A DNA stretch of 64,000 nucleotides from assembly GCA_965637545.1 (NCBI GenBank), contig OZ281499.1:8928001-8992000 (forward strand). The letters run 5' to 3'. Position numbers and translations under genes: made by a program. This DNA comes from Phallusia mammillata. Its lineage: Eukaryota. Positions 9,914-62,965 of the stretch are shown one piece after another; within the stretch, counting starts at the first letter, position 1; each line of letters begins with the position of its first letter. The notes beneath the pieces were generated by a model that was not told the DNA's origin, made no database searches, and saw only the letters and a program-made list of their open reading frames with translations.

Positions 9914-9987
9914 GCCTGTGTAGCTCAGTTGGTAGAGCGCGAGTCCCGGAAAGACTCCTGTCGTGGGTTCGAATCCCACCGCAGGAT
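9914..9987 (+). tRNA. tRNA-like sequence (SINE head or tRNA pseudogene), apparent anticodon GGA
   Basis: Cloverleaf: acceptor GCCTGTG/CGCAGGA (6/7), D arm GCTC/GAGC, anticodon stem GAGTC/GACTC with loop CCGGAAA, 5-nt variable region, T arm GTGGG-TTCGAAT-CCCAC. Perfect A and B boxes; T5 immediately downstream. Non-canonical: C at position 33, an extra base before the anticodon stem, no long variable arm. Confidence 0.55.
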
Positions 9988-28682: not shown

Positions 28683-31600
28683 ATGGTAACTAAATTAGAC
28701 TCAAGGAGCAGTGACGCTGATGCCCCAAACCCGCACTTGAAAGAGGATGAGCTGTGCAACCTCGTCGGTGAAAAGGAAATAAGTGTTTCGAATTCGGATG
28801 AAAGCTTTGAAAATTTGGAAGTGATACTGGCGTGTCCTTCACTAAAAAGGTAGAAACATTTTTGTTATTATTTGCACTAAAAAAAATGGCAAATAAGGTT
28901 TAATTTTAATGCACCCAAAAGAAACGTTATTGTGTGAATGTGAATGAAGGCCGAAATCACTATATATCTTGAGTAAAATCATCTTAATGCCATGAATACA
29001 TTTGTAAACTAGGTGTATTTGCACCACCATTCTAAAATAGTATATCTTAATTGGGGTATTATCTGAAACGAAACCCGTGATAATAATCACCTAACACACA
29101 TTTTCCTTCACAGAAACGAAATCAGAAAGATTTGGAAGAACCTGATTCTTATATGTCTTGCATTTGTTGGTAACTTTATTGCGTTTAACGGCGCCAGCGC
29201 CCTTCAATCCAGTCTTAATGCCGAGGCAGGACTCGTGAGCGCTTCACTTTCTGTTATCTATGCTGCAATAATTATATCTGCAATGTTTTTACCAGCTTAT
29301 GGTAAGTTTACTATACGTATTTCGGTTGGTACCACAAAACACAGATGCAAAAACATGATAATTTGTATGAAAAGTTGCATATTATCATTTTATCTATCTT
29401 CAGTTGGGTAGCGGACCCCAGGCCATTACCAATTTGCTACCACCAGATGTTTCGCTGCATTGATTTTTTTTAACTTTCAATTCTGTTGTTTTAGTTATTT
29501 TTCAGGAGTTGGTTTAATTATAGTTAGGTATGTCAGATTAAAAACTAACTACAACGTTTTAAATTGCCAATTTTAACGCTTTAAATTGATAACCTGAAAC
29601 ACATTTTTGTGGGCGTTGAGCTTCGGTATTTTTATTGTAAACTGCTCTTGATTCAATTTAAAACGTAGATTAAACAATCAAAACATCGTCCAATCAATTA
29701 AGTAGTTTTCCGGAAAGAATGCATAACAGGCCAATAGGTCACAGTACTGCTCCCTTATGGCAATCTTATCCGTAGCTAAGGTATAAAATACTTTCTGTTA
29801 CCAAAAGGGTGCCTTACTTGTTGCTAGCCACCAACACTTTAATTAACTGATTTCGTTCATTTGGTTGCAAATGATTACAAGCAACAGTATAGCAATTAGA
29901 TTAGGACAATGCAGTGAAAAGCTAATTTAGCGCATAGGCGCAGCAGTTCACACTGGTATCATATCATCAGCCGGACAATCATAAAACAGCAACCTCTAGA
30001 AATACGCAACCCCAGGGAAAAAAGTCGTCCTGCACCAAATATCGCTTTGCTATTTAACGTAGTTTGTAACTGGCAAAATTTTACCATGAACATTCTAATT
30101 TTTCTCTTTTTTAGTAATTGACTGGCTTGGTTGCAAATGGACGATCGTTGTAGCGATTTGCGGCTACGTCACATATTATCTCGCTAATTTCTACCCACAT
30201 TGGGGAACTCTTATACCAAGTTCCATAATCCTCGGACTCTCTGCTGCTCCCCTGTGGTCTGCCAAGTGCACCTACCTCACCACATCTGCTAAAAGGTTTG
30301 TCCTAAAAAAGATCATTTAGTGCAGGGGTGTCTAACGTGCATGCAGCCCACCAAGCCCTCTAATGCGGCCCTCAAACAAAACAAAAATTGTAGTATTTAG
30401 TCAGATTTTTATCCAAATATAACAGTTTTTTAACTATTCAAAGTTGAAGCTATTCATTAAACGGACATTTACAGCTAGAACTTTAATAAAGAAATAAAAA
30501 AAATGTTATGAATAGAAACGATAGTAAACCGTTCCTCTAACTAAAAAAAGCGTTTAGTTTCAGTCAGGGGTGCAGAACTTGCGGCCGTGCGGACACATGC
30601 GGCCACAGAGACGAGTTTGTGCGGCCATGAACATGTTTATTAAAATACATTATATGTACTGGCGGCCGTGACGTAAATAAAACACATTTGCCAAATATTT
30701 TGACTTTCAAACTGCTCTAAACATATTTTGTGGTACTGAAAAAAGTATTACCATCCTAAATAGCCATATGCGTCAGACTTTTTGCGCCTATTGTGTACTA
30801 ACAATGCGAAAAAACAGGTACCACAGGCATCACAATATAGATTATGACGTCATAAACAATTAAGACTGATCTTCACACTGTGCAGCTCAATCTGCGCCAT
30901 CAAGTTGGAAATTAGTCTGGGCTTTTTGGGCGTCAATAGATGGTATACATATGATATAAACCTATTTCTTTACATCTGTAATTTTAAAACAAGGTGAAAT
31001 AAGGATCTGCAATACGGCCGTCGTGGCGAAAAGATTGTGCTGCCCTGGTTAAAGTTTATAAAACTAGATTAAAAATCACATGCGGCCCTTGGCATAATTT
31101 CCAACTGCAATGTGGCCCTCGAAGCCCCATGAGTTTGACACCCCTGATTTAGTGCAAACTGTTTCGAACTATAAGGTCTCATCAGTGCAGCTGGTGACGA
31201 GAGATAGGCCATACGAGCTAATGTAGCCTTTTACGGCACTCCAGTTTGTTTGGAGCAGTAAGCATACCATTCAAATGTATCAACTTGAAAAAAACGGACA
31301 CTTTGTCATTTGTCTAACGGTACTTGATAGACTTGCGAATTCTGTCAGAAGACCTAAACCGTTATTTTCAAACTCTCAATTATTGTTTAGGTATGCGTTA
31401 CTGACCAATGATATCACAGATGCAGTGGTTAACAGATTTTTTGGCGTTTTCTTTCTATTTTTCCAGTCAAGTCTGATTATTGGAAACCTACTTTCCTCGT
31501 TTGTTTTATCAGCTGACAACACAGAAAAACTTGGTAAAGTGTTAATAATGTGAAATTTCGTCTTTGTGGTTTACTACCAACCCGACTAGATATCCAACCC

Positions 31601-41794: not shown

Positions 41795-42897
41795 TCTTTT
41801 CACGCCTGAAGTGCAACACAAAAGAATGTACATAAACCAGTTCTACAACTCGACAAACACTTGTGACGTCACAGTCCTGTCTTGAAAAGAGTATCTCACC
41901 TAGGATAATATGCAAGATTATCAGTGTTTGCTAGATCGTTCGGGTTTTGTAGGTTTGACTCTCATGTCGTGGGTTGCGTTTATGACACTAATGTCATTGC
42001 TATTAGCGCAAAACTTTTTGAGCAATTGTAACAATTATGTTCGGTTGTGTTAAATGTTTAATGAACCCTTATGCGATACAACACTCTTGTGTAATCCTGC
42101 AGAAATTACATAGAAGTTACTTTAGTAGGTTAACTGTCAGAAACCGTGTTCCCGTTTCTTGAATCAAAGATATTTCTGCGTATATGTACAGGATAAAACG
42201 TTGATTGTTGTCAACTGGTGAATATAACAACAAATCTAAACTATATCTTTCGTTATAATAGCCCAACAAAACGTTTCAAAATCCATTGAGTAACCACAAT
42301 GTATGATAGCAGGCACGCAATACAGATTTACCGCAGATATCAGATGCACGATTTAAAAACAACAAAACAGTCTTTGCTTTGACTCTAAAGAAGAGTGTGT
42401 TTAGTTTAATCTGATTGGTATCTTCAACTGTTCTCATCGTGCCTTTAACTCTTTATTTTAGAATTGTTGATAGGGCAGCGGAATGGCTGTACGACTGAGT
42501 GGTAAAATTAAAATTAATGCATCGATCAAAACCACATGAGCATGTTGTCACTTTCTTAAAAACATGGTTGTTTCAAGAATTCTAATGCCGTCTTTAGCAA
42601 CCAATAGGTTTTTAATGACTGCAAAAGTTCCTTGTTGTTGTGTAGCTGCAGACGTTTTGACGGGCAGGTAAAGTGGTTAAAGTCGCCTTTTTGAAGCATA
42701 GACATTATTTGATTTGTTTGGTTTGGACCAACCACAAAACGATTACAACATTTAATGCAAATTCTGTACGAGGCATCATTCCTTCTATTTCAAACTGTTT
42801 AAGTAAATATTTCAAGTATCCTTAACTCCTCAAGTAACAAGTAAAAAAACGGATTTATGTAGACAAAGAAGTAAACAGAACAAACAATGCATTTACT

Positions 42898-44000
42898 GAG
42901 GCTGAATGCAGTTTATCCGAGCATATCTTTCACACAAGAACTAGAGTTACACAACACCATCCATTACTTAGATGTGCTCGTAACGAATACACCCAATGGC
43001 ATAGTCACTACCACCTACCGCAAGCCTACCCACAGTGGACTTTACAGCAAGTGGGACAGCTTTGTACCCCTTCACCATAAACGCAACCTCGTTAACTGCC
43101 TCATAAAAAGAGCATATAACATCTCCAGTTCCTACAAAATCATGGACCAAGAGTTTCGAACAGTAAAATCCATGCTTGCCTCCAATGGATACCCTGTCAC
43201 CTTCCTTGACGGGTGTGTTAAAGGGTTTCTCAACAGATGTCATCGCCCCACACTTCCATCTTCACCCAAACGATCGGAAACCACACTATTGGTGACCATG
43301 CGCCTCCCCTTTATAGGAACCACATCTTACAATATAGCGCGTGAGCTCAAGGGATTTGTGAAACGCACAATACTCGATGTGGAACTACGGGTTATCCACA
43401 AACCGACAAAAATTGGCAGTTTCTTTTCTATCAAGGACCGCCCTTGCAACAACCTCCGCTGCAGTGTTGTTTACAGGCTGACATGTTCGTGTGGGTCCTC
43501 ATATATTGGTGAGACGCAGCGAAACTTAATAACTCGAATAAAAGAGCACCAGACCAACGAAAAATCGGAAGTGTGTAGGCATCTCCAGACTAACCCTATG
43601 CATAGGGTCAACTTCACAGAACCAGAAATATTGGACGCAACGTCAGATCGGATTCGTTTGTTTATTCTGGAGTCGCTTCTTATCCAGCAACATGACCGGG
43701 GCTGAACGTGGACACAACTTCGATGCCCCTGCGGCTTTTTAACACCTAATTCACTGGTTTTATCGTTATCTCCATTTTGTCGGCAACCTTTTATCAGCGT
43801 GACGCAGTTGATTAAACTTTTCTCCTTACTTTTTCTGTATATAAACGCGCTTGTTTCCACTTGTGCATTACATTTTCACTGATGATGACAATAGTTTTGT
43901 CGAAACGTTTGTTTTAATAAAATGAATACGTTTTACTCTACGTCGCTGGCAATTTGCTTTTTATTAAAGCTGTTATTCAAGTCCGTGTCTTGTGTACCTA
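42898..44000 (+). mobile_element. 5'-truncated Penelope-like retroelement (RT C-terminus + GIY-YIG endonuclease + pLTR with hammerhead)
   Basis: ORF 42887-43705: HYLDVLV, YRKPTHSGLY (RT thumb), VVYRLTCSCGSSYIGETQRNLITRIKEH (GIY-YIG), ILESLLI; terminal 1-nt frameshift. Perfect 12-bp TSD AATGCATTTACT (42886-42897, 44001-44012). Confidence 0.93.
43866..43925 (+). ncRNA. Minimal type-I hammerhead ribozyme of the Penelope pLTR
   Basis: CTGATGA (43879-85), stem II GACAA-TAGTT-TTGTC, GAAA, stem III ACGT, triplet GTT, stem I CATTTTCA / TG..AAAATG. Confidence 0.72.
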
Positions 44001-44504
44001 AATGCATTTACTTTTGTACGAAACACACATACACTCATGTCTGTTCCATTGCAGTAACGTAAACTGAAGTATATCACGGAAATGTAGTGGAAGATTGGCA
44101 GGAAGTCAAGTTCAGTTTTGCCACTGCCAATATTCACCACCATATTGTTATGTACAGTTCGCAGAAATAATGTTAGTTCTTAGTACAATTAAAACAGCAA
44201 CCTTTGTAATAGGAAGTAAACAAAAATTGTTGTATTAAAAAATGAATGCAAATCAGTGCTGGCTCCAATAATACGAGTAAAAACACGTTTGTGTGCACCA
44301 TAAATTGAACCATAAACTTTTGAGTTTTAGCTGCCAGCTGGAACGACACAGGGTTAAGTTTCTTTGGTGGATTCTGTAACTTGACATGACTTAAATTTCA
44401 ATAGCTTTGTTATCAAAAAGATGTTGCATTGGGACAGTGTTTCTCAAAGGTATGGACCAACTAAGACACAAATTGAGCTTCTAAAAGTGCATTTTATCAT
44501 CAAG

Positions 44505-45132
44505 TAATTGCCTGGCTTAGTTGCAAATCGTTGTAGCGATTTGCGGCTACATCACATATCCTCTCGCTAATTTTTATCCACATTAGGAAACTCTTATACC
44601 AAGTTTAGTTATCGATGAACTCTCTGCTGCAACCTGTGGTCGGCCAAGTGCACAAAACTGTTAAGTTATAATTATACAACTGTTAGATGTAGGTAATATT
44701 TTGTTTGTCACCACTATCAGTCTCTGTTTGTTATTTCCTGATCAGAAGTTTATTCAGAGTTTAGCTTTAGCCAAAACTCATATTTCATAATGCTTATTAT
44801 TTTCTTGGCAGTATGTCCTACCTGCTACAACAAAACATTTATTGAACAACAATGTGGCAAAAGTGACTCCCAGGGTGACTTGTCTGCAGCCAGATTGAAA
44901 TTCAACAACTATGAGTGTTCAATGTAAAAGCATATAGAGCCAATAAATGATAAGCTGCAGACAGTGCACACTGTTTCGACCTATAAGGTCTCATATGAGT
45001 GTTCAGTTTCTGATCTGAACATTTCGGGACCGACTTATTCTACAATCTATACATTTTAATGGGAATTTACACTGCCAGCGGATTCTTTGGGGCGTTTGTA
45101 ATGGCTGTTGGTGTCGATAACATTAAAGTCAG
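44505..45132 (+). pseudogene. UNC93A: Decayed seventh UNC93A-like copy (exon 3-like and exon 5-like remnants; exon 4 absent)
   Basis: 44505-44653 matches exon 3 with deletions and a TGG>TAG stop in HWG. 44812-45132 matches exon 5 (ends GTCGATAACATTAAAGTCAG|gt as in copy 2) with a frameshift and a 72-bp insertion. Confidence 0.87.
44922..44993 (-). mobile_element. HH-A hammerhead element, 5'-truncated insertion with 12-bp TSD
   Basis: Minus strand TGA-GACC-TTATA-GGTC-GAAA-CAGTGTGCACTG-TC-TGCAGC-TTATCATTTATTGGCTCTATATGCTTTTACAT. TSD TATGAGTGTTCA at 44910-44921 and 44994-45005. Confidence 0.85.
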
Positions 45133-46896
45133 GTACGGAAATTTCTTATTCTTCAAAACAATAAAAATGTAAAATAAAAAAAATCGATATCTATGTACAT
45201 GATGAACTGGCAAATCACGAAGTATTCCGAAGAGTTAGTATGAGGGTGAAGTTTTGTTGTTTGGCTTTAACGTCCTTGAGTGTCCCTTAATGGGTTTGAT
45301 GACAAACAGCCCTATGGTTTTTATCAGATGGCAGATACAAAAAAGACTACGTTTGTTTGAACAATGACTTAGTTTTAAGAGCTGACAATTCAAAACCCTT
45401 TTTTGGTGACTTTTAAGCTCGCTAAATTGCTGATTCGGTTGGTTGTTAACCCGATAACAGCGTTTTTTGAACTCGTTTTCATTGTTCATAGACTCTCCAA
45501 CGACTTGGTCTACGAAGGTTACTACAACAAATTCGCATCGAAACTCGATAAAATGCAAATCAAGTAAACTGAAGGGTCAAATAAGATTCCTTCCTTCACA
45601 GTCCATGACAATGTTTCTTAAACAAACAAAAAATATCGTTTTTTATCAAGTGATTGCCTACTAGCTTGTCTGCTGGGACGACGATCAAAGTTGTTAATGT
45701 ATATACAACACAATATTTGCGCTTTTGGATGCTTGACTGGTGCATTTTTGCCATTTTTACGACTTCTATCACTATATTTTGAGTTTTTGTAATTAACACC
45801 TTTAGTCAAGGCTTTATATTGTATCGGAGACCACAAATCAACACCTGATTAAAAGTATGTTGATGTCCAAAAAAAAAAATCTCAACGTATTTGATACATA
45901 CAAGATTGGGAACTAATGTTGCATACCACCCAAATAAAGCGTAATACTATGCTGTTTTTGTAGTTGTGTGACAGAATGACAAGAAAACCAATAAAACCTT
46001 TTCAAAAGTGAAAATGTTTGTAATTTTGCATACCGGCCTTTAAATGTCGAGTTTTATAATGCATATTTTCAACACGTTTTAACTTATTAATCGGATTTTC
46101 GCAACTCTGATATCACATTTATTATCAGTGTTGTATTTATAATAAACAAGAATTCAATGAAAGAAAGTGATTGATTCAGCTACGTGCGAAAATGTTTTCA
46201 CATTTGTGCAAACAAGATTTGTAAACAGAGCAACCAAACATTGCAAAATACCATTACTGATAAAGTGGGATCGAAGTTAGTATATAAGCTACCAAGTAAA
46301 TACAATCAAAACTGAATCATTCCTTAGCGTCAGGTGATCAATTGTCGCATAACGCGAGAGAATATAAACGCAGGATCAATTGAAACAACACTGCACTATT
46401 CATTATCACAACTGAAGTTGTATTAAGTGCTGGCCTTGAGTTCAGCGATTGAGTTTGTTTTGCGGCCATAAAACGTTTTCAATGCTCAGGCCCCTTGTGC
46501 AAAGATTTACTTTTCGATTCACAACAAGCTTCGTTGCGTTGCACTGCATTCGCTGTGAGCAACGAGGTGCAGTAGTTGGTTTTATAGCTCACCCTTTAGA
46601 GATTATTACTCACTATTTCGAGTTTTATTATCTTTTGTAAGGCACACATATAAAGATCAATATCACGTAGGCACTCTTCAGTTTCTGTTTAATGCACAGC
46701 TTAGAGAATAGCAAAATTTTGTCAGAATTTGACAAAGCATATCGGAAGGCTTCTGGCTTGTTGACTGCTAGCTTTTTAGGTGCACAAAACGACGTTTACG
46801 CCTTGAGAAAGTTTCAAAAGGTTTTAAGGTTTATGCAAAGCATTATGTTATGACACTTTCTCTTTCGCAGTTTGTTCCTTTTAAATTTGTATCAGA

Positions 46897-49800
46897 ATGA
46901 GCGAAACAAGTTCGATCAAGGCGGATGAATTGTGGGAAGGAGACATCGAAAATCTAAAACGCATTAAATCTAATCCTGAGGAAAAAAAGTATGAAATAAT
47001 TGTGACAAAATAGTTTACTACAGTTTTACTTTCATCGATATGAGGTTATTGAGGTTATTTATTTTCTTTAGAAAAGAAATAAGGAAGATTTGGAAGAACT
47101 TGATCCTTATCTGCATCGCATTTGTGGGAAACTTTACTGCTTTTAACGGGGCATCCGCTCTTCAATCCAGTCTTAACTCTGATGAAGGACTTGGAACAGC
47201 TTCGCTATCTGTTATATACGGGACGCTCATCATTTCGGCATTGTTCCTTCCCACTTACGGTAAAAATTTATCTCATTATATAAATGGTTTCCACCTTTTT
47301 TTTTCTGTGGCTCATGTTATTCAAATCGGTAAATGCATAAAACATTTGAAACCACTTATTTAACACAAAATTAAAATTTAGTGTAACATCACAAATCAGT
47401 ACATCTTCAAAGCTCTGTGGCTTCTCCAACATGGTTTTGTGGCTTATTGCAGGGTTATGGGCCCCTGTTTGGGAACCAGTCCTTTATGCTTTGTACAACC
47501 AGTTTTCACCTCTTTTAAAAGTACCAAGCATTATTTTATCTTTAAAATATACATGCATTTTAACCGAAAAAAGGCCTTATACCTTATGTGAGTTGAGTAA
47601 CTTTTATTGCAAGTCCTGCCCAACACTAAGTTGTGTACAATTTACTGTTTTGTTGACATCGAAGGTTCGTTGGCAGCAGAAAGTCCCACAATGAACAAAG
47701 ATTTTTTTTATTTGTCCAATTAACATTGTGCTCGTAAACCTCTAATGTAGTAATCTTTATGTGGAAAACGTTTATATGGCGGATGTTCTCACAAAACTAA
47801 CTTTACAGCCTTGTGACCATAAAGACGAAGTTTCGGGTCAATGACGCTTTGCAAAAAAATTTATAGCTTAACTGCCTGACGGTTATTGGTTTCCGCTCTT
47901 TTACACCAAAATAAACCATTTAAGGGAACAATCGGCAAACAAATCGTTGCGCTAAACGATTAAAGAAATATCTGGAAGGCTTCATGAATATTCCATGGTG
48001 CTTTTTCCACCATTGCTTACAAATGAGTTTTAAAAATTTAATCAGCGACATTTTTCAGTGATCAACTTTCTCGGCTGCAAATGGACGATCGTTGTAGCGA
48101 TTTGCGGTTACGTCACATATCCACTCGCTAACTTCTACCCACATTGGGGAACTCTTATGCCAAGCTCCATATTTGTTGGTCTCTCTGCTGCGCCCTTGTG
48201 GTCGGCCAAGTGTGCCTACCTTACAACAAATGCTAAAAGGTTTGACACATTTATAGCTATAATTCCAAAGAAACTGATACTGGCAAATTCTAATGCTGTA
48301 ACGCAATTTTCCTAACGTTTTTTCCACATCTCATACCAAACACAAGTTTAAACCTTATGGTGCTGCTTTTTTCTAGAAACGGAAGATACTTTAATAACGA
48401 AATACCTTTGCGTTTCAATAAAGAAATGCTAAACTTTCCAAATTTGTATACGGTCTAAATTTTAACATAAAAGATTGAACACAAAGGTATTTAGTGATAT
48501 CATTATTTCTGAGACTAAACCTAAACATCTCCAAGTCTCAGAACGTTGGAATTTGATCTAGTTCAGATCAGCAATGGAACCAAATGTTTTTTGTAAAACA
48601 TGCAGGTACGCCATTTTAACACATGACAAAAAAGATGGAGAGGAAAGCGACATAAGTTTAACCAAACTTGTGGATGCAATAGTAAACAGGTTCTTCGGAA
48701 TTTTTTTCCTATTCTTTCAGTCGACGCAAATCATTGGAAATCTCATTTCATCTTTTGTTCTGTCGGCTGATGTCATCAATGATCTTGGTTAGTTTAACTT
48801 GCGCTTCTTTAAACAATAAATAAACCTAAATATTGCTTCATGATACAGAATTCCCTACATGCTTCAACGAAACCTATATTGAAGAAAATTGTGGTAAAAA
48901 TGACTGCCAGGGTGACTTAAACGCAGCTAGAATCCAGTATAACAGCAGTGAGTGTCCCGTGAGCGACCTCAATAGCTCCGGTCCGTCGGACGACACAATC
49001 TACATACTAATGGGAATATACACTGCTATTGGTTTGAGCGGTGCACTTCTCATGGCCCTTGCAGTCGACAACATCAAAATAAGGTATTTTGTTTTGGTCA
49101 ATATAAAAGCAAGCAAAAAAAGACATGTGTTTATTTTGATTTGCAGAGAAAAAGAAACTCGTGGGCTGTTTGCTTTGCTATTCGCAACAATAGAACATAT
49201 GAAGGACAAGCGACAACTGCTGCTAATTCCTATCACAATGTACAGTGGCTTTGAGCAAGCTTTTCTAACTGGAGACTACACCAGGGTAATGCGTATGCTT
49301 ATTGTATGTCTTAACTCAACCCATTTACTTTGGATGAAAATCAATTGACAGCGCCCTACTCTCTTTAAAATAATGTTCTTAAAAGTCAAAAACAGAGGCA
49401 TTTGCTGTAACCATTTCCTGTTTTTTAGTCGTTTATTACTTGCCCAATCGGAGTGAACTGGGTTGGATTTGTGTTGATTTGCTACGGTGGCTGTGATGCG
49501 ATTTTTTCTTTGCTGTGCGGTGGGGCTGAGAAGTATGTTGGAAGGTGGCCACTTTTTTCTGTAGCTGCTCTCATCAATCTTGGTCTCATCATTACGTTCC
49601 AAGTTAGTCAGTGTGTGTTTATCACCAAGCTTTACTATTTTTCGAAATGCTTATAGATTTGCAATTTGTTGTCATATCCGACCATTTTTAGGTGTGGTTG
49701 CCATATCCCAACGAGGTAGCTCTCTTTTTTGTCCTTCCTGCTCTCTGGGGGTTGGCAGATGCTGTATGGCAGACCCAGCTTAACGGTAAGTTATATTTGC

Positions 49801-50483
49801 ATGCACATGATCTTTACAACAATATAGTATTGGTCGATACTTTCAGTATGAATTCTAATAATCTAAGTAATTGACAGCTCTGTTATTCCGAGTTTTCCGA
49901 TTAGCATTATTACAAACCAGAGACAAAAAACACTTCCACATTTTCACAGTTGATTTTTTTGTTGCAGCGCTTTACGGAGTGCTTTTCGTAGGCAACCAAG
50001 AAGCAAGTTTTGCCAACTACCGGCTTTGGGAGTCAATTGGATTCGTGATTTCTTTTGGATATCAGAACTTTGTCTGTGTTTCAGACAAACTTTGGGTGAT
50101 ACTTTCTGTTCTTATCGTTGGCATGACACTCTACTATTATGTTGAGGTAGGATTTGTTCGTTAGGTTAGGAAGTGTTTCAACATTTGTAAATAGCTAACC
50201 GTAGATTGTAGCATCATATGAGCAATGAACATCGACCCATGGGCGGAAAATGTTGTTTGTAGTTTATGGGGTTGGTAACTAACAAAATCGGCATATAATT
50301 GACTTATGCGGTATTAACCTTTTGATCAAAATCTTACAGTTTCGAGAAAGAAAGAAACCCAATCAAACTGTGACATTTAATGATGAACATAAAAGCAAGA
50401 ATAACATGGCATTTAGGAAGACATCTGTAAGCACAATAAGCGCCAATGGGGTCGACAACGGTGGTTTTTCGACTGAGCTCTAG
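46897..50483 (+). CDS. UNC93A: UNC93A-like MFS membrane protein, copy 5 (complete)
   Basis: Exons 46897-46988, 47072-47259, 48059-48239, 48606-48787 (39 nt longer than in the other copies), 48849-49083, 49147-49285, 49429-49602, 49692-49785, 49968-50146, 50340-50483 (..GVDNGGFSTEL*). Confidence 0.93.
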
Positions 50484-50967
50484 AGGAAAAGAAGTTTGAT
50501 ATACCAACAAAGTTCCTGCATGCTTTTCGTCCCTTGTCATACGTTTCGTTATGATTTTATGCAAGGCCTGTGCCGATTTGAAATCTTACTTCTGTAAACA
50601 GTGCTTTGCAGCATCCCACTGTGTAAAAACTGATTCGTTATAATGTTGTAATTTGTCATTCCTTTTTTTAATTTTTCCAGAGCGACCTCATATGAATGCA
50701 TTTGATGCTTGGTATATATGTGCCTATTATAAATAAAAGCAGTGACAGGTTGGTTCATTAAGCTACGTTCATTAAGCTATCTTAGAGGTTTGAATGCAAA
50801 TTCCTGATGTTAAGATTAGAGTTGTAAGTCGCACGGGTTTTTGGGGTTTGGTCACATTTTCGTCCCGGTGACGTTCAACAAAATACATTGTGCCAATTGC
50901 CTCGATGCCACTCAGGTCCAATTCAATACAGGAAAAACCAGCCACTAAACATAGGATTGTGTGAGTT

Positions 50968-51062
50968 AAATAAGCCGCAGACAGTGCACACTGTTTCGAT
51001 CTAAAAGGTCCTATTAGTGCAGCTTGTGAAACAAACTATAGGCCGTATTAGCTGGTGTAGCA
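50968..51062 (-). ncRNA. HH-A hammerhead element, full span but core-mutated
   Basis: Minus strand GCTGCA-CTAATAG-GACC-TTTTA-GATC-GAAA-CAGTGTGCACTG-TC-TGCGGC. CTGATGA is changed to CTAATAG. Confidence 0.75.
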
Positions 51063-52035
51063 ATGGCTCTCCTGTTTGTTGGAAGTCACAGACTGAAAAC
51101 CCATGCCTCACCAACTCTGTTCCATAACTAGGCATAAACTACAGGCCAGCGTTTTCTGAATTTCGCAGTCTTAAAACACAAATTGAATTGTAATGGTATA
51201 ATGACGAGCTAGATAGATTTTCAGAACAAATAAAACAATTATAAGGTTCCAGAGTCGTAATGCACATCCATATCTCGCCAGCAAGCCTTAAAATATGAGA
51301 TGATACATGCACTCGTTAAGAATAGTCTTTTTCGAGCCAAACAAATACCTGTATAGGCACATTTTGAAACCCTCGATGACTTTCCATAGAGAGCCGCAGC
51401 CCAATTTAGAAATCTTCGTGACTGATGTAAGCCGCTATTAAAAATCAAAAATATTAGTTTTTCTAAATATGACAATATTGTTAAGTTCGTGTTGCTTGTT
51501 AATACAAACGTCAACATGCCACAACTGCAACAATTTACAAGTCTTAGTCATCTAGATTCTAGAATCTAGATGATGAAGAGTTACAAAACCTGATTCAATG
51601 ATGAAGGCTATTTTCAATCGCGAGGTTTCGCAGCTGTTTCTTGATTCTGTGTCTCTTATTTAAATGTTTTCAATTTTATCAATTATATGTTCAGGACAGA
51701 AATAAACACAATACAAGGCAACATATCGGGCAATTTAAGGCTGCTTGCAACGCAGACAAACTAAAGTAACGTTTGAAACAAAATATCCGGTAGACTCCGC
51801 CAAATAACTTTCATATCCTATGCAACCACGGACCCTTACAGCTCTGTCTATAAAGTAGCATAAATTTCGCGTTCAAAAACAAAAACTAAAATGGTATTAC
51901 TGTACTGAGTCAGTAAGCAAATGGAATGTAACCACAAATATTGCTTTTCAAAATTACAGGGGGATTTACACATATATTGCAGGCATACACATAGAGTAAA
52001 AAGAAACAGAATCTCTCTGCAAACCAAATAAAGCA

Positions 52036-52107
52036 CAGTACGCCAGGCCCATTGAAGGCGCTATACCGAATCAGCCGGTCACCAAGCACTCACCACCATA
52101 TGGCACT
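52036..52107. mobile_element. Fragment of the 21003-type TIR element
   Basis: CAGTACGCCAGGCCCATTGAAGGCG matches the 21003 TIR. TCACCAAGCACTCACCACCATATGGCA is the reverse complement of about 10005-10031. Confidence 0.6.
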
Positions 52108-53304
52108 AACGCAAACATATAAGATCACCAGGCAGGTTGTCCTTAAAGTAAACATAGAGATAGCCAGCTGGCCGAAATTCCTAACTTATCACCGACATCT
52201 TTCCTATATAAGCCACAATTTTTTCGGTAACTGTTCATTTTGTAGTAAACGGTTGGTCGAGCTAGGAGGTTAAAGTTAGAGCAAGGATGCCAGATCGTAC
52301 TATATTTAGACAACGTTTTAGTAAGTTGTATGCTGACCAACATAAGAACATATAGTAGTACACTTACCGAGATATCATAAACCAAACTGTTCAGTGCTGT
52401 ATAATATACACTGTATATGCTACTCGATGTTATTCGCATTTTATTTTGGGGATACTTAGTTTTTATAGCCTATTTCATATTCTCGAAACTGAATCGCGTT
52501 TATATCAAGCTAGCCAGTACAAGCAAATGCAAGTGACAGGTTAGTTTTCTAAAACTATTGTTTTTGGAAGAAGATATATTATGCGCACGCTAATGTATCA
52601 AATTACTTGATTAGACCAACAGTGGATGGCGCTCTTTGCTGCCGTCGGGGCAAGATTGTCCGTCAAAAAACTTGGTAGTCATATGACCCCCGGTCTCTAC
52701 ACACTAAACACTAGGCATCATAGATTTTGCATGGGGCATGAACATTTGATTAAAACAAAATATGTAGGGGGCTGCGTCAAGGTTTATGATTAGTTAGATC
52801 AGGATGATCAAAACCGCATGTAGCTTTTGTGCGGCCCGAGAACAGTATCTGCATATGAATCATCGAATCGATTGCAGTAAATAATACGCTAATCATCAAG
52901 TAGAAGGTCATTGTATATCTATTGTTAACCAACAAATTCTCTTTGTTGCGAACATCGGAACTTACAGGAGCTTTAAAACAGTTGTTACAGAGTGCTAGCA
53001 GATGTGCTTTGTGGTGATAATATTTAGGTCCTAATATCTTACATAAAGTCAACTAGAACAGAAAATTCAGTCATTGGATACAAAAGTATTTCTCCTGTGC
53101 GTTTCGCAAACCGTTAGTTAAACCCTAACGTGGCCTTCTATTTTTATAGTCTTGGACCACCATGAGTTAGCTTATATCAAAAACAGGTCCTAGCTGGTTG
53201 TTTCGAGATGGCCAAGATCCCACTAAACATCAACCCATACCCTTGATTTTTTTCTCTCTTATAGAGGTATATTGTTTTCTTTTAAATTTGTATGCAATAA
53301 TAAT

Positions 53305-56300
53305 ATGGAAGAAGGTAAAAGGAGCGATGTCAGCGAGGAATCGAAGTGGGATGGGGATATTGATGAGCTGACAAACATTAAGAATAATCCTATCAGAAAA
53401 AAGTAAGAGAATATTGCAAAAATAATGTGCAGACAATGCACATTTTTTCGACCTACAGGGTCTCAATAGTACAGATGGATGGTTACAAGAGGTAGGCCTA
53501 TCCTTGTCACCAGCTGCAATGATGAGTCCCTGTAGGCCAGGGGTGGGCAACCTTTGTCACTGTGAGGCCAAATACAATTGCTATGATTGGATCGCGGGCC
53601 GCACCTTTATATAACACAATGTGATCTTACTTCGTTGCATACCAAAAATGCCTTACTACAAGAAACATTCGCATTTGATTCTAACAGCACATTGTCAGGT
53701 CGCAGAAAAACAGCATCAGGCCCACTAATCTGCTCAAAAAATTTTAATAGTTGGACTTGTTTGCCAGTACATTTGAAATCCAAGTGTCTCTGCGGGCCGC
53801 ACAACTTTAATCAAAGGGCCGCATGCGGTCCACGGGCCGCAGGTTGCCCACCCCTGCTGTAGGCAGTGGTGGGATTCAAATTTTTGGTTAGCCGGTTTTT
53901 TCACAAAAGTCATATTTTTTAGCCGATTCTGTTACAAAAAGTCCATTGACAGTAACCAGTAATGCTCACCAGTTTCCTGATCTCATAAAGTTTCGTGAGA
54001 CGGTTCTATAGAACCGGTGCGAACCGGCTAAATCCCACCACTGCCATAGGTCGAAACAGTGTGCACTGTCTGCAGCTTATCTTTTTTTGGCTTGATGCTT
54101 TTTCATTGCAAATGTATATATTCGTTTTTACTGCGATTAGGTATAGTTTTGGTATGGCAAGTCTGTATCATTATGCGCAAACCACATGCTAATGTTTTAT
54201 AAAACGATTTTGCAAATATTGGCTAATAATTTTTTTGATTGTTCATGATTCAAATACAATTAATTATCCTGAAATCAATAAACAGATTCTTGTAATTCTT
54301 CTAAGTGAATAAAAGTTCTTCATATTATCTGAAATATGTGTACAGAACCGAGATTAGAAAGATCTGGAAGAACCTGATCCTCATCTGTATTTCATTTGTG
54401 GGAAACTTTACGGCTTTTAACGGTGCTTCCGCTCTTCAATCAAGCCTTAACTCAGAGGAAGGACTTGGAACAGCTTCGCTTGCGATCATTTACGCCTCAC
54501 TTATTATATCGGCGCTGTTCCTTCCCACTTATGGTAAGGCTTATCTCTGATTGAAGTAACATAGTGGTAAGATTATGTCGGTTCATGTAGATCTGGTTTT
54601 GGAAACGTAAAGACCTCCCCGAACCGGTTGTTTAGTCGTAGTATTTAGGCTTATAGGTCAGTTGGATCGGATTGAAAGCTGGGTAGCTAGGTCATGTACT
54701 TACAAACATGGTTGTACTCTTGAGATCGACTAAGGGCACTTGTTGTGAATATGTTTAACATTACATTACAGTAAAAACTTACTAAAAAAAGTGAAAAACA
54801 ACAAATGGAACTTTATTGCAGGAAAACACCCAAAAGTCACAATGGTATTTGATCTTTATTTGTACTGAAAACCTAGAGGCCGTTAAACTCCATATAATGT
54901 CAGTAACGTTCGGGTTTCTAAAGAACTTTGAAAGTGAATGTCCTCACAAACTTTTACCATCCTGTAGTCACAGTAACAGAGTTACGAGTCTGACAACGCT
55001 TTTGTGTTTGCGAACAAAATTGCAGTTTAACGATTTGATGATTGTTTGGTTCCGCTGTTTTACTCCAAAGGCAACAGATTAAATGCTGATAAAGTTTGTA
55101 AAAGAAAGTAAAACTATTTTAGTACTAGGACAAACAAATAATTCTGAAGAAATCGTAAACCTCTGTTAGTGTTTTGATATAACCATAGTTACTTAGCGGG
55201 TAAAAATTTACTGGCGTTTGGAATTCAAACACCTGTATCTGTTCTTTCGCAGTCATCAATTTTCTCGGCTGCAAATGGACGATCGTTGTAGCGATTTGCG
55301 GCTATGTCACTTATCCTCTGGCCAATTTTTACCCACACTGGGGAACTCTTATTCCAAGCTCCATATTTGTTGGACTCTCTGCTGCCCCCTTATGGTCAGC
55401 TAAATGCACTTACCTTACTACAAGTGCCAAAAGGTTTGTAAATAAAAGTAAGATTTATATGGAATATTATGTGTATTAGGTTCTGGTGAAGATACTAAAG
55501 TATAAACTCAAATAACAAAAGTTTGCTAAAATCCGAAAGATGACGTAAAGAACATAGTTATTTTAGTGTATGGAACTGAATTAGAGGTTAGTGAGTAAGT
55601 TTTTCAGTTAGTTTACTGTTATTTTTTTATAAAACCTCAGGCTATACCCCAACCCTAATGTCTCTCATTGTCAGCATTTTCACACATAATTTCGTCAACA
55701 TTTCAAAATTTCAATACGGATTCGAACCCAGTATGCTCCCAAAGAATCCCGATCACGGTTTTTAAGACTGTATATGGGTCAGGCGCGCTGGACCATTCGG
55801 CCAAGTTCCAACCCATTTTCAGCAATTTTTTTAGCTTAATTCTTAATGCTCTTTACGCCACCTATCGTTGTTTCACAAACTTTTGTGATTTGAGTTCTCA
55901 CCTTAGTACCTCAACCTTGAATTCTATACCGTAAATATATATGAGTTCAGATGTGTATGCCCAATCGCTAACCTTTGGTGCTAACTCATCTTATTCTGAT
56001 TTAGTTGTAAAGTATCGTTAAGATTTTCAATTATGTTGAAAATGCATTGAGGTCATGTTTCATTTAGGTACGCATTTTTAACGGATGAAAGTGTGGATGC
56101 CATGGTAAACAGGTTCTTTGGAATTTTCTTCCTATTCTTCCAGTCGACGCAGATCATTGGAAACCTCATTTCATCTTTCATACTTTCAGCTGACTCCACT
56201 AACAATCTCGGTTAGTTAAACTTGAGCTTCTTCAGGCAATAGAAAAACCTAGTTATTGCTTCATGATGTAGAATTCCCCACATGCTTCAACGAGACCTAC

Positions 56301-59150
56301 ATTGAAGAAAATTGTGGTAAAAATGACTGCCAGGGTGACTTGACGGCAGCTAGAATCCAGTATAACAGCAGCGAGTGTCCTGTGAGCGACCTCAATAGTT
56401 CAGGACCATCCAACTCTACCATCTACACACTGATGGGAATATACACCGCTATTGGTTTCAGTGGTGCACTTCTCATGGCTCTTGCGGTGGATCCCATACA
56501 AATAAGGTTTTGCTATAATCTGTAACTTTTGGATAATGAAGAATTACTTTGGTGTTACGCATATTTTGATTGACAGAAAGAAAGAAACTCGTGGACCGTT
56601 TGATTTGCTCATTGCAACAATATTTCACATGAAGGATAAACGACAACTGCTGCTAATTCCTATCACAATGTACAGTGGCTTTGAGCAAGCTTTTCTGACT
56701 GGAGACTACACCAGGGTAATAGGCCTACACCAGTGGTTCCCAAACTTTTTAATATTTTTTTCTAAACGGTCCCCTTGCCATTATTTCGGCTCGCGGTCCT
56801 TAAGCCTAAATGTGTATTTCATAAAAACAAAAGTTGATTGCAGGATTTTAGCCAGTTGTGCAAAATTGCGCATAATAATCATCCAAGGACAGCATGTGAC
56901 ATCACAAACAGGACAAAAACATTACGATTGTGCGCGAACAATTGCATTTATTATAGTTGTCATTCAATAAAGGCCATTGTTTAGCAATGGAGACAGTCGA
57001 TTCTTAATTCTACTTTGATTTAAACTTATTTAGTGGCACAAACTGACGCCAAATAAGATTATAGAATTACTTCAATCGCCTCGCGGTCCCCTCAAAATTG
57101 CCCCACGGACCCCAGTTTGGGAACCGCTGGCCTACACTAACACTGTACATGATTTATGATTAGTTTTAGTAAATTGAGGTGTTTATGGATGCTTTTGTAA
57201 AGAACTTTACGAAACCTCAGGAAAAATCATTACATCCACCGTTAAATGACCATTTCCTCCAACATTTTTAGTCGTTTATTACTTGCCCAATCGGAGTGAA
57301 CTGGGTTGGATTCGTATTGATTTGCTACGGTGCCTGCGATTCGGTATTCTCTTTGCTGTTCGGTGGGGCTGAGAAGTATGTTGGAAGGTGGCCACTTTTT
57401 ACTGGAGCAACATTGATCAACCTTGCCCTTATAATTACCTTCCAGGTAATCATAATAACATTGATCCTATTCCACTGGTCTAGTCTTTGCACGTTTGGTA
57501 GTGTAGTAAATGTTAATGATTTTTAGGTCTGGCTGCCCTATCCCAATGAGGTAGCTCTTTTCTTTGTTCTTCCTGCTCTATGGGGGTTGGCGGATGCTGT
57601 ATGGCAGACCCAGCTTAACGGTAAGTTACAAATATGGTTACAAGTTAAACCCGGCACTGTTTTCGCTGCATTTCTTGTTTTATGATAAGCTGCTGACAGT
57701 GCACACAGAAGTACCAACAGTGCAGCTGATGAAAATACATAGGCCGTATTGGCTATAGTAGCTCCATCTAACGGTGCAGCATCTAACGGTATTCTTGTTT
57801 TCAATCCAAGAAACTTCCGTAATATTCTTGAAAGTATACTTGGCGGATATGATGTTATTGTTTTTTAGGCTTGAAAGTGTCCTCGTAAGAAACACGTGCA
57901 GTTATCCCTATTTTTTGCAGCTCTCTACGGAGTACTTTTCGTAACCAATCAAGAAGCAAGTTTTGCCAACTACCGGCTTTGGGAGTCAATCGGCTATGTG
58001 ATTTCATTTGGATATCAGAACTTTATCTGTGTTTCGGTCAAACTCTGGGTGATGCTGTCTGTTCTTATCGTTGGCATGGCACTTTACTACTACGTTGAGG
58101 TAGGCCAGTTTTTAGTCGTGATAAACAAGTGTTCCCTTTTCAGTTTGGGGCTACAGCGTGCATGTAATGTCGCTGATTGGGGATACACAAAGATCTCGTA
58201 TTTGTCTGCAAAGGTGAAAAATAGAGGGGGCATGGATCAAACAGCAGTTGTGCAGTAACGATTGGTCGGGTACAAAGAACAATCAAAGCATGCAGTGTTA
58301 CTTTTAGTGGAAGTTGCCCAAATGTCCTAAGCAACAGATTTTTAACCTATGAATAACTCGCGTACCATCGACGTCTTTTCATCGCCTTGTAGCACCCAAA
58401 CCCTGCTTGGGTGGGTAGACCAATAGCTATAGGCCTATTCTTCTTGACTAGGCTAGCATATTTCTAAAACCGACAAGGTTAGCAATTCCAAAGGCATCGT
58501 CAAGACATTTTGGACGAGTATTGTCCAAAACCATAGCTAATTAGTTCAGGGGTTCTTAACCAGGGGTGCACGCAGCCCCAAGGGGTGCGAGAACTGTTCC
58601 TTGGGGTTGCGGGGAGGCTGAATCATTAAGGTTGGTTAGGTCTATTATATATAAATACAAAAACCCAGCGGGGTGCGAAAACTGGTTGGTGATTGGAAAG
58701 GAGTGCGAAAATTGGTTGGTGATTGGAAAGGGGTGCAGCAACGCAAAAAGTTTAAGAACCACTGAATTAGTTGGTGTTGGGCCAATTGGGTTGCATTTCA
58801 TAATCTGACTTGACTTACGTATAGCACAAAGCCACCACCATAAACACTCCGGTGTAACACTAATGGTACGCGTAGTACAGGTTGAGAACCATTGCTCTGT
58901 CCAGGTGTACGACCTGCAGTTTTATTTCACGTGCACCTAAGTAAGTATTTCCTTCGCCGTTTCAAACTGTAAATTTTCCAGGCGTGTTATTTACCTTTCT
59001 TCATAATTTTAGATTTTGGAAAGGAAGACACCCAATCGGACGTCAGCAATCAACGACGAAGAAAACAGAAAGGACAACATTTCTTCTATCAGTAGCAGGA
59101 GTAGATATGACAGTGGGGTTGACAACGTGGCCTTTGCGGGGGAACTTTAG
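53305..59150 (+). CDS. UNC93A: UNC93A-like MFS membrane protein, copy 6 (complete)
   Basis: Exons 53305-53402 (MEEGKRSD..WDGDIDELTNIKNNP), 54346-54533, 55253-55433, 56068-56210, 56272-56506, 56577-56715, 57272-57445, 57527-57620, 57921-58099, 59013-59150 (..GVDNVAFAGEL*). Confidence 0.9.
53538..53856. mobile_element. hAT-type MITE
   Basis: TIR CAGGGGTGGGCAACC / GGTTGCCCACCCCTG; perfect TSD CTGTAGGC. Confidence 0.92.
53864..54043. mobile_element. hAT-type MITE (CAGTGGTGGGATT TIR)
   Basis: TIR CAGTGGTGGGATT / AATCCCACCACTG; flanks CTGTAGG / CCATAGGT (degenerate TSD). Same family as 61775-61922. Confidence 0.85.
55718..55814 (-). mobile_element. tRNA-derived SINE family A copy (intron 3 of copy 6)
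   Basis: Minus strand TTGGCCGAATGGTCCAGCGCGCCTGACCCATATAC...GATCGGGATTC...GGGTTCGAATCC; matches 1-95 and 8706-8770. Confidence 0.72.
56731..57129. mobile_element. hAT-type MITE
   Basis: TIR CAGTGGTTCCCAAAC / GTTTGGGAACCGCTG; perfect TSD GCCTACAC. Confidence 0.9.
57683..57790 (-). ncRNA. HH-A element, degenerate (stem II and GAAA region deleted)
   Basis: Plus strand GATAAGCTGCTGACAGTGCACAC...CAGTGCAGCTG...ATAGGCCGTATTGGCTA..CCATCTAACGG is colinear with the other HH-A copies. Confidence 0.65.
58547..58764. mobile_element. hAT-type MITE
   Basis: TIR CAGGGGTTCTTAACC / TTTAAGAACCACTG; perfect TSD AATTAGTT; reverse-complement sibling of 33459-33675. Confidence 0.92.
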
Positions 59151-60123: not shown

Positions 60124-62965
60124 TCACAGGGTTTGAAGAACATTAAGTGATTGTGGTTTATAAAGTCGTATAGTTTCATCCCATCCACAATCTGCCACCA
60201 AACCAGGGACAAAAGTACTAAAATCAACTCCATACACAAACTCTGTATGATGGTCAATTGTTTCTAAAAGAGGACTGAGACCTTGAGGCTTCAGAAAATC
60301 CCATGTTCTGCAAAACATAAAGTTAAAACTCAATTCATTAATGTGTATTAATATGTAATTAAGTAAAATAAGTCTTACATGCCAAAATAAAAAATGTGTG
60401 CATGTTAAAATTCCAAGGAAAGGCAATATAGTTTTACACTATTTTAAAGACAAGACACACCAAGGTACACAATTCATGGTTAGATTCATACAAGAAACAA
60501 ACAGTCCAATATTCTTGTATAAAACATTTCAACAGCAACTTGTGTCATTCTTAAATAAAATGAATGTAAAACCCAACAGCAAGTAAAAGAGGCACCTGCA
60601 TTTTGTGCTGTTTTTTTCGCATTTATTGCTTTTACTGGTTTTACTCGCTGCTTGGTTTTTACATTAAATTCATTTGAGAATGACACAAGTTGCTGTTGAA
60701 ATGTCATGTTATATACAAATATATTGGCTTGTTTGTTTCTCGCTATGACTTACTAATATAAAACATGATTGCCAAAACTGTTTGCTAACGTCATAACTCA
60801 CCTTACAGTGAAGTCATATGAACAACTTGCCACAGTTCCAGCTACATATGGTGAACAACGAACTCTGCGCACTGCATATGTGTGACCACACATCTGACAC
60901 AAGCACGATTTGGTATTTCTTAAGTCCCAAACTCTGGAACATATTGAAAGTTTTGACTGCAAAAATGTCACAAACACAAGTATACAGGAGGCCTGTGGTC
61001 CAAACAAAAATTTGAGCACAAAACCTGTGTAAACCTCTGATTACCTTAGTGAGCAGTCTACAGAACCTGTAATAAGTATTTTATCATCATATTTTGACCA
61101 ATCACATGAAAGAACTTCCGTTTCATGGGCAGGTATCACATGTTGTGGCATGTACTGCTTCCGTATGTCCCAAATTCGTGCAGTTCCATCAGCTGCAAAT
61201 CAATTAATTTTAGCAACAAAATAGAGTTTGTTTTTTCAGTATTTAAAATATTAATGGCTTGTCAAAAAACATACAAGTCTGGTACAAAATGTATTTGTTC
61301 GCACACATATACAAGTAAACTGTATCTTTCAATGAAATTTGTAGAAATAGAAATCATAACATACCAGAGGTGCTGGCAAAACATCCAGATATATGTGGAG
61401 ACCAAACTGCACTGTATACAACACCGTAATGGCCAGCAAAGCTTCCCAAAGACTTTCCCAAACCAGCTCCAATATCCCATAACTTTACCGTATTGTCCCA
61501 TGAACCAGATATAACAAGATTTTTGTCTCCAGTATGACACCAATCCACTGAATAAACCTCCTTCTCATGTTCTCGCAAGACCAGCATTGGTACCTGAACA
61601 AAAAATGATGCCACTAATAGAAAATAGTTGTTTTATGCTCAACCATTTAGCAACATATATATGATTTAAGCGTAAAAATAGAGATAAAAACTACTATGTT
61701 AAAAAATGCAAAAAAAGAAAATACAAAAGCAAGAAAAAAAACGACTGCTGCCTTAATCATTCTTTAGTCAGAAACAGTGGTGGGATTCAGCCGGTTCGCA
61801 GCATTCTATAGAACTGTCTCACGCAATTTTATAACATCAGCGAAACGGTTAGCATTACTGGCTACTGTCCATGGACTTTTTGTAACATAACCGGCCGACA
61901 AAAAATTTGAATCCCACCACTGGCCCCACTTTAATACAAAGAAAAATTATAAGACTTTCTGACATTGTTAGTGATGTTCCAGACTTGGATTCCACCATCT
62001 CCACCAGCAGTGACACAAACTGCTTCATCCAGCTCACTCCAACTCACATCAAACAATCCATCTTCCCATTTGCATGTTTGTGTTACAGCAATTGGTGCAT
62101 TGAAGTTCGGATCAAATTCAAATATAAGTAGAGCAGCAGTTCCTTCATGGTACAGTAAAAATACATCAAAGTCAAAACATTTAATATGTCACAGATTACT
62201 CTAGGTCAGTAATTGTCAAGCTGTATTTGAATGACCCCTTTGGGAGCTTGTGGTTTTCAAAAAACAACAACATGAAGACAGACAAAAGTCCATAATTTTT
62301 TTTTCATTTTACTGATTTCATGTTGAGGAAATTTTCAATAAATTGCTCATGACACACGAATAAAGAGATATATGTTCAAATTTCCCTTGTCTGTCTTTTA
62401 ACACCACTGTTCTAGGTATAAAAATGTTTAATAATAGTTTTGCAATTCCAAAAGCAATCAAACATCTAACATAAATAATAATGCAATACACAACTTAACA
62501 ATGAAAACATAAAAATTATTTCAAATTTGCAAGTGTTTTTGTCAAGAACATCCTTTCCTTAGTTAAACATATTTGTGCCTTCGATTTATATCTGATTAAA
62601 CAGCCAACACAATGTTGTCAACTACAGTAGCAAAGCAAGTTTTGTACAAACACCAAGGGCACCTTTCATGCAAAAGTACTGTCAGCCATAAAATAAAAAC
62701 TTATTAAAAATGGAAGTGCTGTATTTTTGCCAATTTAAATAAAGCTTCAATTTAACTAAAAATAGATGTTTAATTGCATTTTCCATTGCACATACCTTTA
62801 AACAACATAAATTAAGTTTTAGTCTGTTATTTTGCACGAAATTAAAACCTTCAAGTTACCTGAAATTCCATACTGTTGGCATGCAACACATGCAAGCCTT
62901 GTAGGAGAAAAGGGCGAAAATTTCACAGAATAACCATGAAGGCCTTGTGTGTGAAAGGAAGTCAT
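60124..62965 (-). CDS. PEX7: Peroxisomal PTS2 receptor PEX7 (WD40), 6 exons
   Basis: Exons 62965-62860 ([36 protein letters not shown]), 62142-61964 (..[18 protein letters not shown]), 61593-61365 ([22 protein letters not shown]), 61192-61045 ([14 protein letters not shown]), 60933-60802 ([18 protein letters not shown]), 60307-60124 ([22 protein letters not shown]). Motifs are colinear with PEX7 as I recall it. Confidence 0.93.
60493..60740. repeat. Long imperfect inverted repeat in PEX7 last intron
   Basis: ACATTTCAACAGCAACTTGTGTCATTCT and AGAATGACACAAGTTGCTGTTGAAATGT are perfectly complementary. The arms extend imperfectly to about 100 bp around a roughly 50-bp spacer. Confidence 0.8.
61775..61922. 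mobile_element. hAT-type MITE in PEX7 intron 2
   Basis: TIR CAGTGGTGGGATTCA / TGAATCCCACCACTG; no recognisable TSD. Confidence 0.8.

Follow-up and report, generated by a model that had tools for sequence, protein, structure and literature searches.

Head-to-head hammerhead repeats in a UNC93A intron, probably the product of one Penelope-type insertion

We find two hammerhead repeats, each truncated at its 5' end, joined head-to-head in intron 1 of a UNC93A gene copy within a 64,000-nt stretch of DNA (hereafter the window). The pair probably arose by a single Penelope-type retrotransposition and was disabled afterwards by point changes and the insertion of two MITEs. In keeping with the initial annotation, which had offered a retrotransposition product of this type as one of its two explanations, a single target duplication surrounds both arms and a tail is present on one of them. 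The flanking direct repeat and the one-sided tail are additions to that first reading of the locus. The unit is larger than the extent first assigned to the dimer, 53427..54081, running from 53413 to 54112 with the target duplication and tail. Without the MITEs it consists of ~170 bp, and in its present state it is most probably an inert piece of the intron.

An exon map made with tblastn identified six full UNC93A copies and one fragment in the window, and the dimer was confirmed to lie in intron 1 of the sixth full copy. Coding exon 1 of copy 6 (53305..53402, plus strand) begins with an ATG at 53305 and is followed by a GT at 53403; its frame runs on into exon 2, and it resembles exon 1 of the neighbouring copy. 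Intron 1 (53403..54345, plus strand, 943 bp), which carries the insertion, has GT..AG boundaries. The neighbouring paralog has an intron 1 of ~80 bp, which is too diverged to act as an empty site. The nearest named relative of one UNC93A exon was a Clavelina lepadiformis protein (80% identity), which makes an ascidian the likely host. The cluster spans 252-58104, with the six full paralogs in mixed orientation, two minus and four plus. The fragment, a seventh copy at 44527-45135 (plus strand), has an exon disrupted by a 72-bp hammerhead insertion and a 2-bp frameshift relative to copy 2. The window also contains a tandem repeat of three copies with a period of ~129 bp (6328-6692).

The two arms are homologous, lie in opposite orientation and meet back-to-back at the palindrome TAGGCCTA (53493-53500), with one hammerhead motif on each strand and both cores mutated, as originally described. 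The left arm (53421..53496, minus strand) is a 5'-truncated, tail-less hammerhead copy with its former cleavage site at C 53432. Its core, CTATTGA (minus strand, 53469-53463), departs from CTGATGA by two changes (G5A and A6U), and stems I and III are changed as well. The right arm lies on the plus strand in two parts. The 5' part (53497..53536) holds the 5' strand of stem I, the core ATGATGA (53519-53525) and the 5' strand of stem II with its loop; the 3' part (54051..54081) holds GAAA, a stem III of 5 bp, the former cleavage site C 54070 and the 3' strand of stem I. The change in the right-arm core is C3A, and position 53519 is C in most of the paralog contigs aligned. An intact catalytic core is absent from both arms, and the right arm additionally contains two MITEs in loop II. 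Judging from the known conservation of the core, we would expect neither arm to self-cleave now.

Both arms are truncated and joined at GGCC (53495..53498), a 4-nt palindrome that is found in monomers of the family. The monomers c31185, c51017 and c57700 run upstream past this hinge for >70 bp through TAYGGCCTAT. Because the monomers read TAYGGCCTAT, only GGCC existed beforehand, and the TA..TA around it, hence the longer palindrome, results from the inversion. The 8-bp junction palindrome is thus no prior feature. Folding with the MITEs removed in silico gave one rod of about -78 kcal/mol on either strand; the rod follows from the inversion and is therefore not independent evidence.

The two MITEs reported within the dimer both split the right arm in loop II. 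MITE1 (53538..53856, 319 bp) has perfect 16-bp TIRs and a perfect 8-bp target duplication, CTGTAGGC, at 53530-37 and 53857-64. MITE2 (53864..54043, 180 bp) has 13-bp TIRs, and its target duplication is degenerate (CCTGTAGG at 53529-36, CC-ATAGG at 54044-50). MITE1 landed at the left end of MITE2; since the first base of MITE2 forms part of the target of MITE1, MITE2 was inserted first and MITE1 second. Both elements show the 8-bp target duplication and short TIRs of hAT-type MITEs, which we take them to be. In contigs, the target consensus of the MITE2 family, GTTATAAC, resembles the ancestral loop II more than it does CTGTA, the variant found in the arms. A second MITE2 copy, 85% identical, is located at 61775-61922. 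In monomer c31185 a further MITE-like end (CAGGGGTGTCAAAC, about 31140-31150) interrupts stem III, so that with the dimer counted three MITE insertions sit in hammerhead loops or stems.

To check the assembly, contigs of four of 24 listed runs were aligned to the window, three of them DNA runs (X1, X3 and X4); such contigs carry no information on strand or ends, and the window itself may derive from X1. The fourth, X10, presumably RNA, had no coverage in the junction bin, which is uninformative. An X1 contig spans the junction with 0 differences, at a depth of 30.2 versus 26.8 on the right flank, and an X4 contig spans it with 2 differences. Both continue into MITE1; the X3 contig extends just 15 nt beyond the junction centre. 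The 31-mers of the junction are single-copy. Bridged in two of the three DNA runs and at single-copy depth, the junction is therefore no assembly artefact. No empty allele of the dimer locus appeared among the contigs listed and 15 of 170 joints; of the loose ends, 24 of 1759 were covered.

A profile built from the window copies and run over the window matched both arms, five further copies, all on the minus strand (92-156, 31151-31258, 44949-44995, 50969-51090 and 57684-57777), and, weakly, 11278-11308. Uninterrupted hammerheads with an intact CTGATGA core and a TT-form loop II were present in 172, 180 and 169 contigs of the three DNA runs, and CTGATGA is likewise intact in c31185 and in the contig consensus. 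These counts, together with diverse flanks at 54102, indicate a high-copy, dispersed family with a fixed tail end. For the majority sequence of the window copies, the minimum-energy fold is a type I hammerhead (-17.9 kcal/mol). With stems of 7, 5 and 5 bp, an open helix I and a core of CUGANGA, GAAA and NUH, the family consensus has the core motifs and the predicted folding of a type I hammerhead. At the gathering score, Rfam returned one tRNA-like match and no hammerhead for the whole window; its six sub-threshold matches in 43700-54200 included 0 hammerheads, and the HepC_CRE and snoRNA rows among the sub-threshold results were dismissed as chance. The tRNA-like sequence (9914-9987, plus strand, 46 bits) is possibly the head of a tRNA-derived SINE. 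A pattern scan of metagenomes returned one locus (L001) with a 21-base match, rejected for its unrelated flanks. The 13 loci from a viral scan were similar just around a 16-base seed and were rejected as unrelated hammerhead-like motifs. The hammerhead family is undescribed in the literature searched, whose coverage was incomplete and where the supplements of PMC4209133 and PMC8557442 may list it. That literature contained no publication matching hammerhead ribozyme, ascidian and Penelope together, and none on ORF-less inverted pairs as judged by title or abstract start.

How the family moves can be seen in a reference monomer, c44997 (44922..44993, minus strand, 72 bp), which is tailed, truncated at the 5' side inside the core and located inside a UNC93A exon. 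It is flanked by a 12-bp target duplication (44910-21 and 44994-45005), and its empty site aligns to two paralogous UNC93A exons with no gap at the site. The duplication and the clean empty site therefore show that the family moves with target duplications. Head-to-tail tandem units were not seen in the window: the copies there are single, and the flanks past the 3' end are diverse (agreement 0.44-0.49). The two longest copies, 50968-51114 and 92-181, start matching each other at TTGGTGAGGC, and this shared start may be the defined 5' end of an element of ~150-190 bp. Among the copies inside UNC93A (92-181, 31151-31258, 44922-44993, 57684-57777 and 53421-54106), every recognisable hammerhead is antisense to the host gene, and in the two sense copies (92-181 and the right arm) the core is deleted or broken. 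This antisense bias fits selection against cleavage of the pre-mRNA, on tiny numbers.

The left target-site duplication ATTGCAAA (53413..53420, plus strand) adjoins the end of the left arm. The right one (54105..54112, plus strand) overlaps the tail end with its first 2 nt, so the duplication around the whole unit measures 6-8 bp. ATTGCAAA is the sole 8-mer common to both flanks, and this single repeat encloses the entire ~170-bp unit; the probability that it arose by chance lies between 0.0005 and 0.002 if all 8 bp are counted, and between 0.004 and 0.018 for 6 bp, with the tail-overlap bases discounted. The right arm alone carries a 3' tail of about 25-30 bp (54082..54106, plus strand), slightly short against the 30-40 bp of the optional Penelope-type tail. 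This tail is common to c44997, which it matches over 41 columns (83%). Consistently, 85, 83 and 86 contigs of the three DNA runs stop matching at 54102 and continue with ACA and then unrelated AT-rich flanks; a cluster of contig ends at 54079, to which copies with and without the tail both contribute, was left out of the counts. The left arm, c51017 and c57700 end without a tail ~10-12 nt after the cleavage site, and of the three remaining window copies whose 3' end is intact, one has the tail and two do not. The two arms thus end where family members normally do at the 3' side, with the tail on the right and without it on the left.

An inverted, 5'-truncated copy in head-to-head arrangement with a palindrome at the junction is characteristic of Penelope-type insertions, and all of these are present here. 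In the available text of PMC3846280, Penelope inserts have an adjacent inverted pLTR and 8-10-bp duplications around the insert; one of the inverted pLTRs carries a 31-bp tail, the junctions are mostly head-to-head with palindromes, and these palindromes are read as a sign of self-priming. The typical Penelope layout, according to the accessible part of PMC8557442, comprises 5'-truncated copies inverted next to one another, together with a tail of 30-40 bp. Excerpts of PMC4209133 describe opposite-strand hammerhead pairs, 100-700 bp apart, that derive from truncated PLEs, and those of PMC11167929 an anole Penelope enzyme that in vitro cleaves each target strand and extends it, starting at two sites between which the tail lies. 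Both an optional tail and a type I hammerhead close to the 3' end count as Penelope traits in the excerpted texts of PMC8557442 and PMC11167929.

On this basis, we propose that a Penelope GIY-YIG/RT enzyme would have made a staggered cut at the target, and that both target strands would have primed reverse transcription on RNA from a single source locus. The right-arm cDNA would start at the tail end and the left-arm cDNA at the tail-less end; both would stop at GGCC, anneal through that palindrome and have their gaps filled in. Within the same model, fold-back self-priming at GGCC is an alternative route that we consider somewhat less probable than dual priming, which is favoured because the left arm stops at the 3' boundary typical of tail-less family members. 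Insertion of MITE2, then of MITE1, and point changes would later have disabled the unit. That the host genome has such enzymes is shown by a 5'-truncated Penelope ORF with a GIY-YIG domain in the window (42875-43705). The element around it (42875-43930, plus strand) has an open stretch of 276 aa with a C-terminal GIY-YIG domain (Pfam 3e-06; 50% to P0002). Downstream, at about 43879-43915, the element has a minimal hammerhead-like motif of its own, of another family than that of the dimer. Because its hammerhead at 43879 belongs to another family, this remnant is not linked to the dimer as a partner; an autonomous element with the dimer-family repeat as its pLTR was not found within the window. 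Besides the missing partner and the lack of an empty allele among the contigs and joints listed, the length of helix III counts against this reading: it is 5 bp, compared with 1-2 bp in most animal hammerheads as described in the available text of PMC4209133.

Whether the arms come from one template bears directly on this reading. The loop-II sequence CTGTA had been described as shared by the arms and lacking in other copies. Among the window copies this is correct, since the three others that keep loop II all differ (TTATA, TTATA and TTTTA), leaving two changes common to the arms and absent elsewhere in the window; against it, the right target copy of MITE2, CC-ATAGG, keeps the ancestral A at one of the two variant positions. 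Elsewhere, 4, 5 and 3 contigs join 53532 to 54047, compatible with G in a few other copies. With A kept in the MITE2 copy, the shared G would reflect either the template followed by a later reversion, or conversion or parallel change. The overall identities are 59/73 between right and left arms (80.8%), 42/46 between the right arm and c44997 (91.3%), 52/59 between the right arm and c31185, and 37/45 between the left arm and c44997; by this measure the arms are not each other's closest relatives. Private differences number 13 in the left arm and 3 in the right (p = 0.02 by columns; 0.09 by events, a count that takes clustered changes once), and the left arm is ~four times more diverged than the matching part of the right arm. 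This asymmetry is odd for arms born together. The initial claim of one template is thus supported by the shared loop-II changes and opposed by the overall identities and the MITE2 copy. On balance we still prefer one template, which accounts in addition for there being a single duplication and for both arms being truncated at one point.

The strongest competitor, though an improbable one, is a sequence of two DNA-level steps: an older left copy joined by a later right copy, or a local inverted duplication of a monomer at GGCC, after which hairpin gene conversion made the shared loop-II bases. The greater divergence of the left arm and the closer relatives elsewhere would suit such a history, as would the ancestral A in the right target copy of MITE2, by which the shared G may be secondary. 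Against this, one direct repeat encloses both arms, the same GGCC truncates both, and the left arm stops at the tail-less 3' end, a boundary that a local duplication would have no reason to observe. Moreover, within 1.5 kb of the five other window copies there is no inverted partner, nor is there one near the 3' end of the Penelope remnant. The initial annotation had held that a unique junction, with arms no closer to each other than to other copies, would indicate two independent insertions. The junction is indeed single-copy and the arms are not closer, but two independent insertions would not account for the single duplication, for truncation of both arms at one GGCC or for the loop-II changes they have in common.

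All target-primed elements share the habit of target duplication and 5' truncation, and twin priming gives non-overlapping segments. It is nevertheless very unlikely that the repeat was a SINE-like passenger of an ordinary LINE, inverted by twin priming. Such an origin would account for the target duplications and the 5' truncation, and no Penelope ORF is linked to the repeat in the window; yet both arms share the same 3' end, unlike twin-priming products, that end has neither poly(A) nor a simple repeat, and the optional tail is, like the type I hammerhead close to the 3' end, a Penelope trait.

Hardly any probability attaches to the other explanation first offered, the fossil of a rod-like ambisense RNA, taken here as the integrated copy of a circle that has a hammerhead in either polarity, as in the carnation small viroid-like RNA. 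Each strand does have a hammerhead, placed at corresponding points of the rod, either strand folds into a stable rod, and the two shared loop-II changes preserve pairing; these changes are explained equally well by one template. The arms are truncated pieces of a longer, dispersed genomic monomer family and have its normal 3' ends, the locus contains neither a head-to-tail repeat nor a unit running from one cleavage site to the next, and contigs across the junction have single-copy depth. Rod pairing comprises 59 pairs, with 3 G-U pairs on the plus strand only, 3 on the minus strand only and 8 mismatches, so that the 14 arm differences are unpaired or strand-neutral, showing no strand bias and no compensation. 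Since the differences between the arms do not compensate each other and neither core is intact today, though both may have been when the unit inserted, it is unlikely that an ambisense RNA replicated here. Just as slight is the chance that GGCC is a recurrent joint at which the family spawned self-complementary RNAs of ~170 nt, with a monomer-competent hammerhead in each polarity, that circularised and were re-inserted or copied as a unit.

On the preferred reading, a single Penelope-type insertion, the dimer is a further example of a known layout and matters little. It would have modest mechanistic value, as no body lies between the arms and their tailed and tail-less ends fit the two start sites of the anole enzyme; the stable helix III of its family is unusual for animal Penelope-type hammerheads. 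Were such dimers a replicating class, they would imply a host retroelement origin of ambisense ribozyme RNA and bear on the origins of viroids. The ~170-nt RNA class, if real, would mean that in an animal a viroid-like ambisense RNA can arise from a Penelope terminus by a genomic route.

Among known systems, the carnation small viroid-like RNA, a 275-nt circle, is the known integrated ambisense case in the available text of PMC12382478. The dimer resembles it and the Avsunviroidae in having hammerheads in both polarities and a possible rod. Unlike them, as far as that text describes them, it has no unit-length repeats, its ribozymes are broken, it is known from DNA alone and both of its arms come from one genomic repeat family. 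The metazoan non-LTR retrozymes, in the accessible portions of PMC7229834 and bioRxiv 10.64898/2026.07.22.740005, share with the family a non-coding nature, a type I hammerhead and a proposed derivation from Penelope, but they form head-to-tail tandems of 170-400 nt, whereas the dimer family is dispersed, truncated and here inverted. The truncated-PLE pairs of Schistosoma mansoni, as excerpted from PMC4209133, likewise combine close opposite-strand hammerheads with a majority of dispersed single members. Their hammerheads are minimal, with little or no helix III, in contrast to the 5-bp helix III and 7-bp stem I of the dimer family, which in this respect is nearer to the monomer-competent hammerheads of fungi and protists covered in the same excerpts. 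As in Adineta vaga Pen2a, Pen2 and Pen3a (available text of PMC3846280; layout in PMC8557442, Fig. 2), the dimer has a head-to-head inverted terminal copy and a junction palindrome, and it shares with the endonuclease-positive PLEs of that species, as these sources present them, one short target duplication, a one-sided tail and a hammerhead near the 3' end. It differs from them in that nothing lies between the inverted ends, neither an ORF nor a second direct pLTR, and in its arms of about 75-100 bp, which are decayed, one of them split by MITEs, and linked to no autonomous partner. Collectively, on every feature tested in these comparisons, the unit appears to belong with the inverted Penelope-type insertion units, whose layout is already known.
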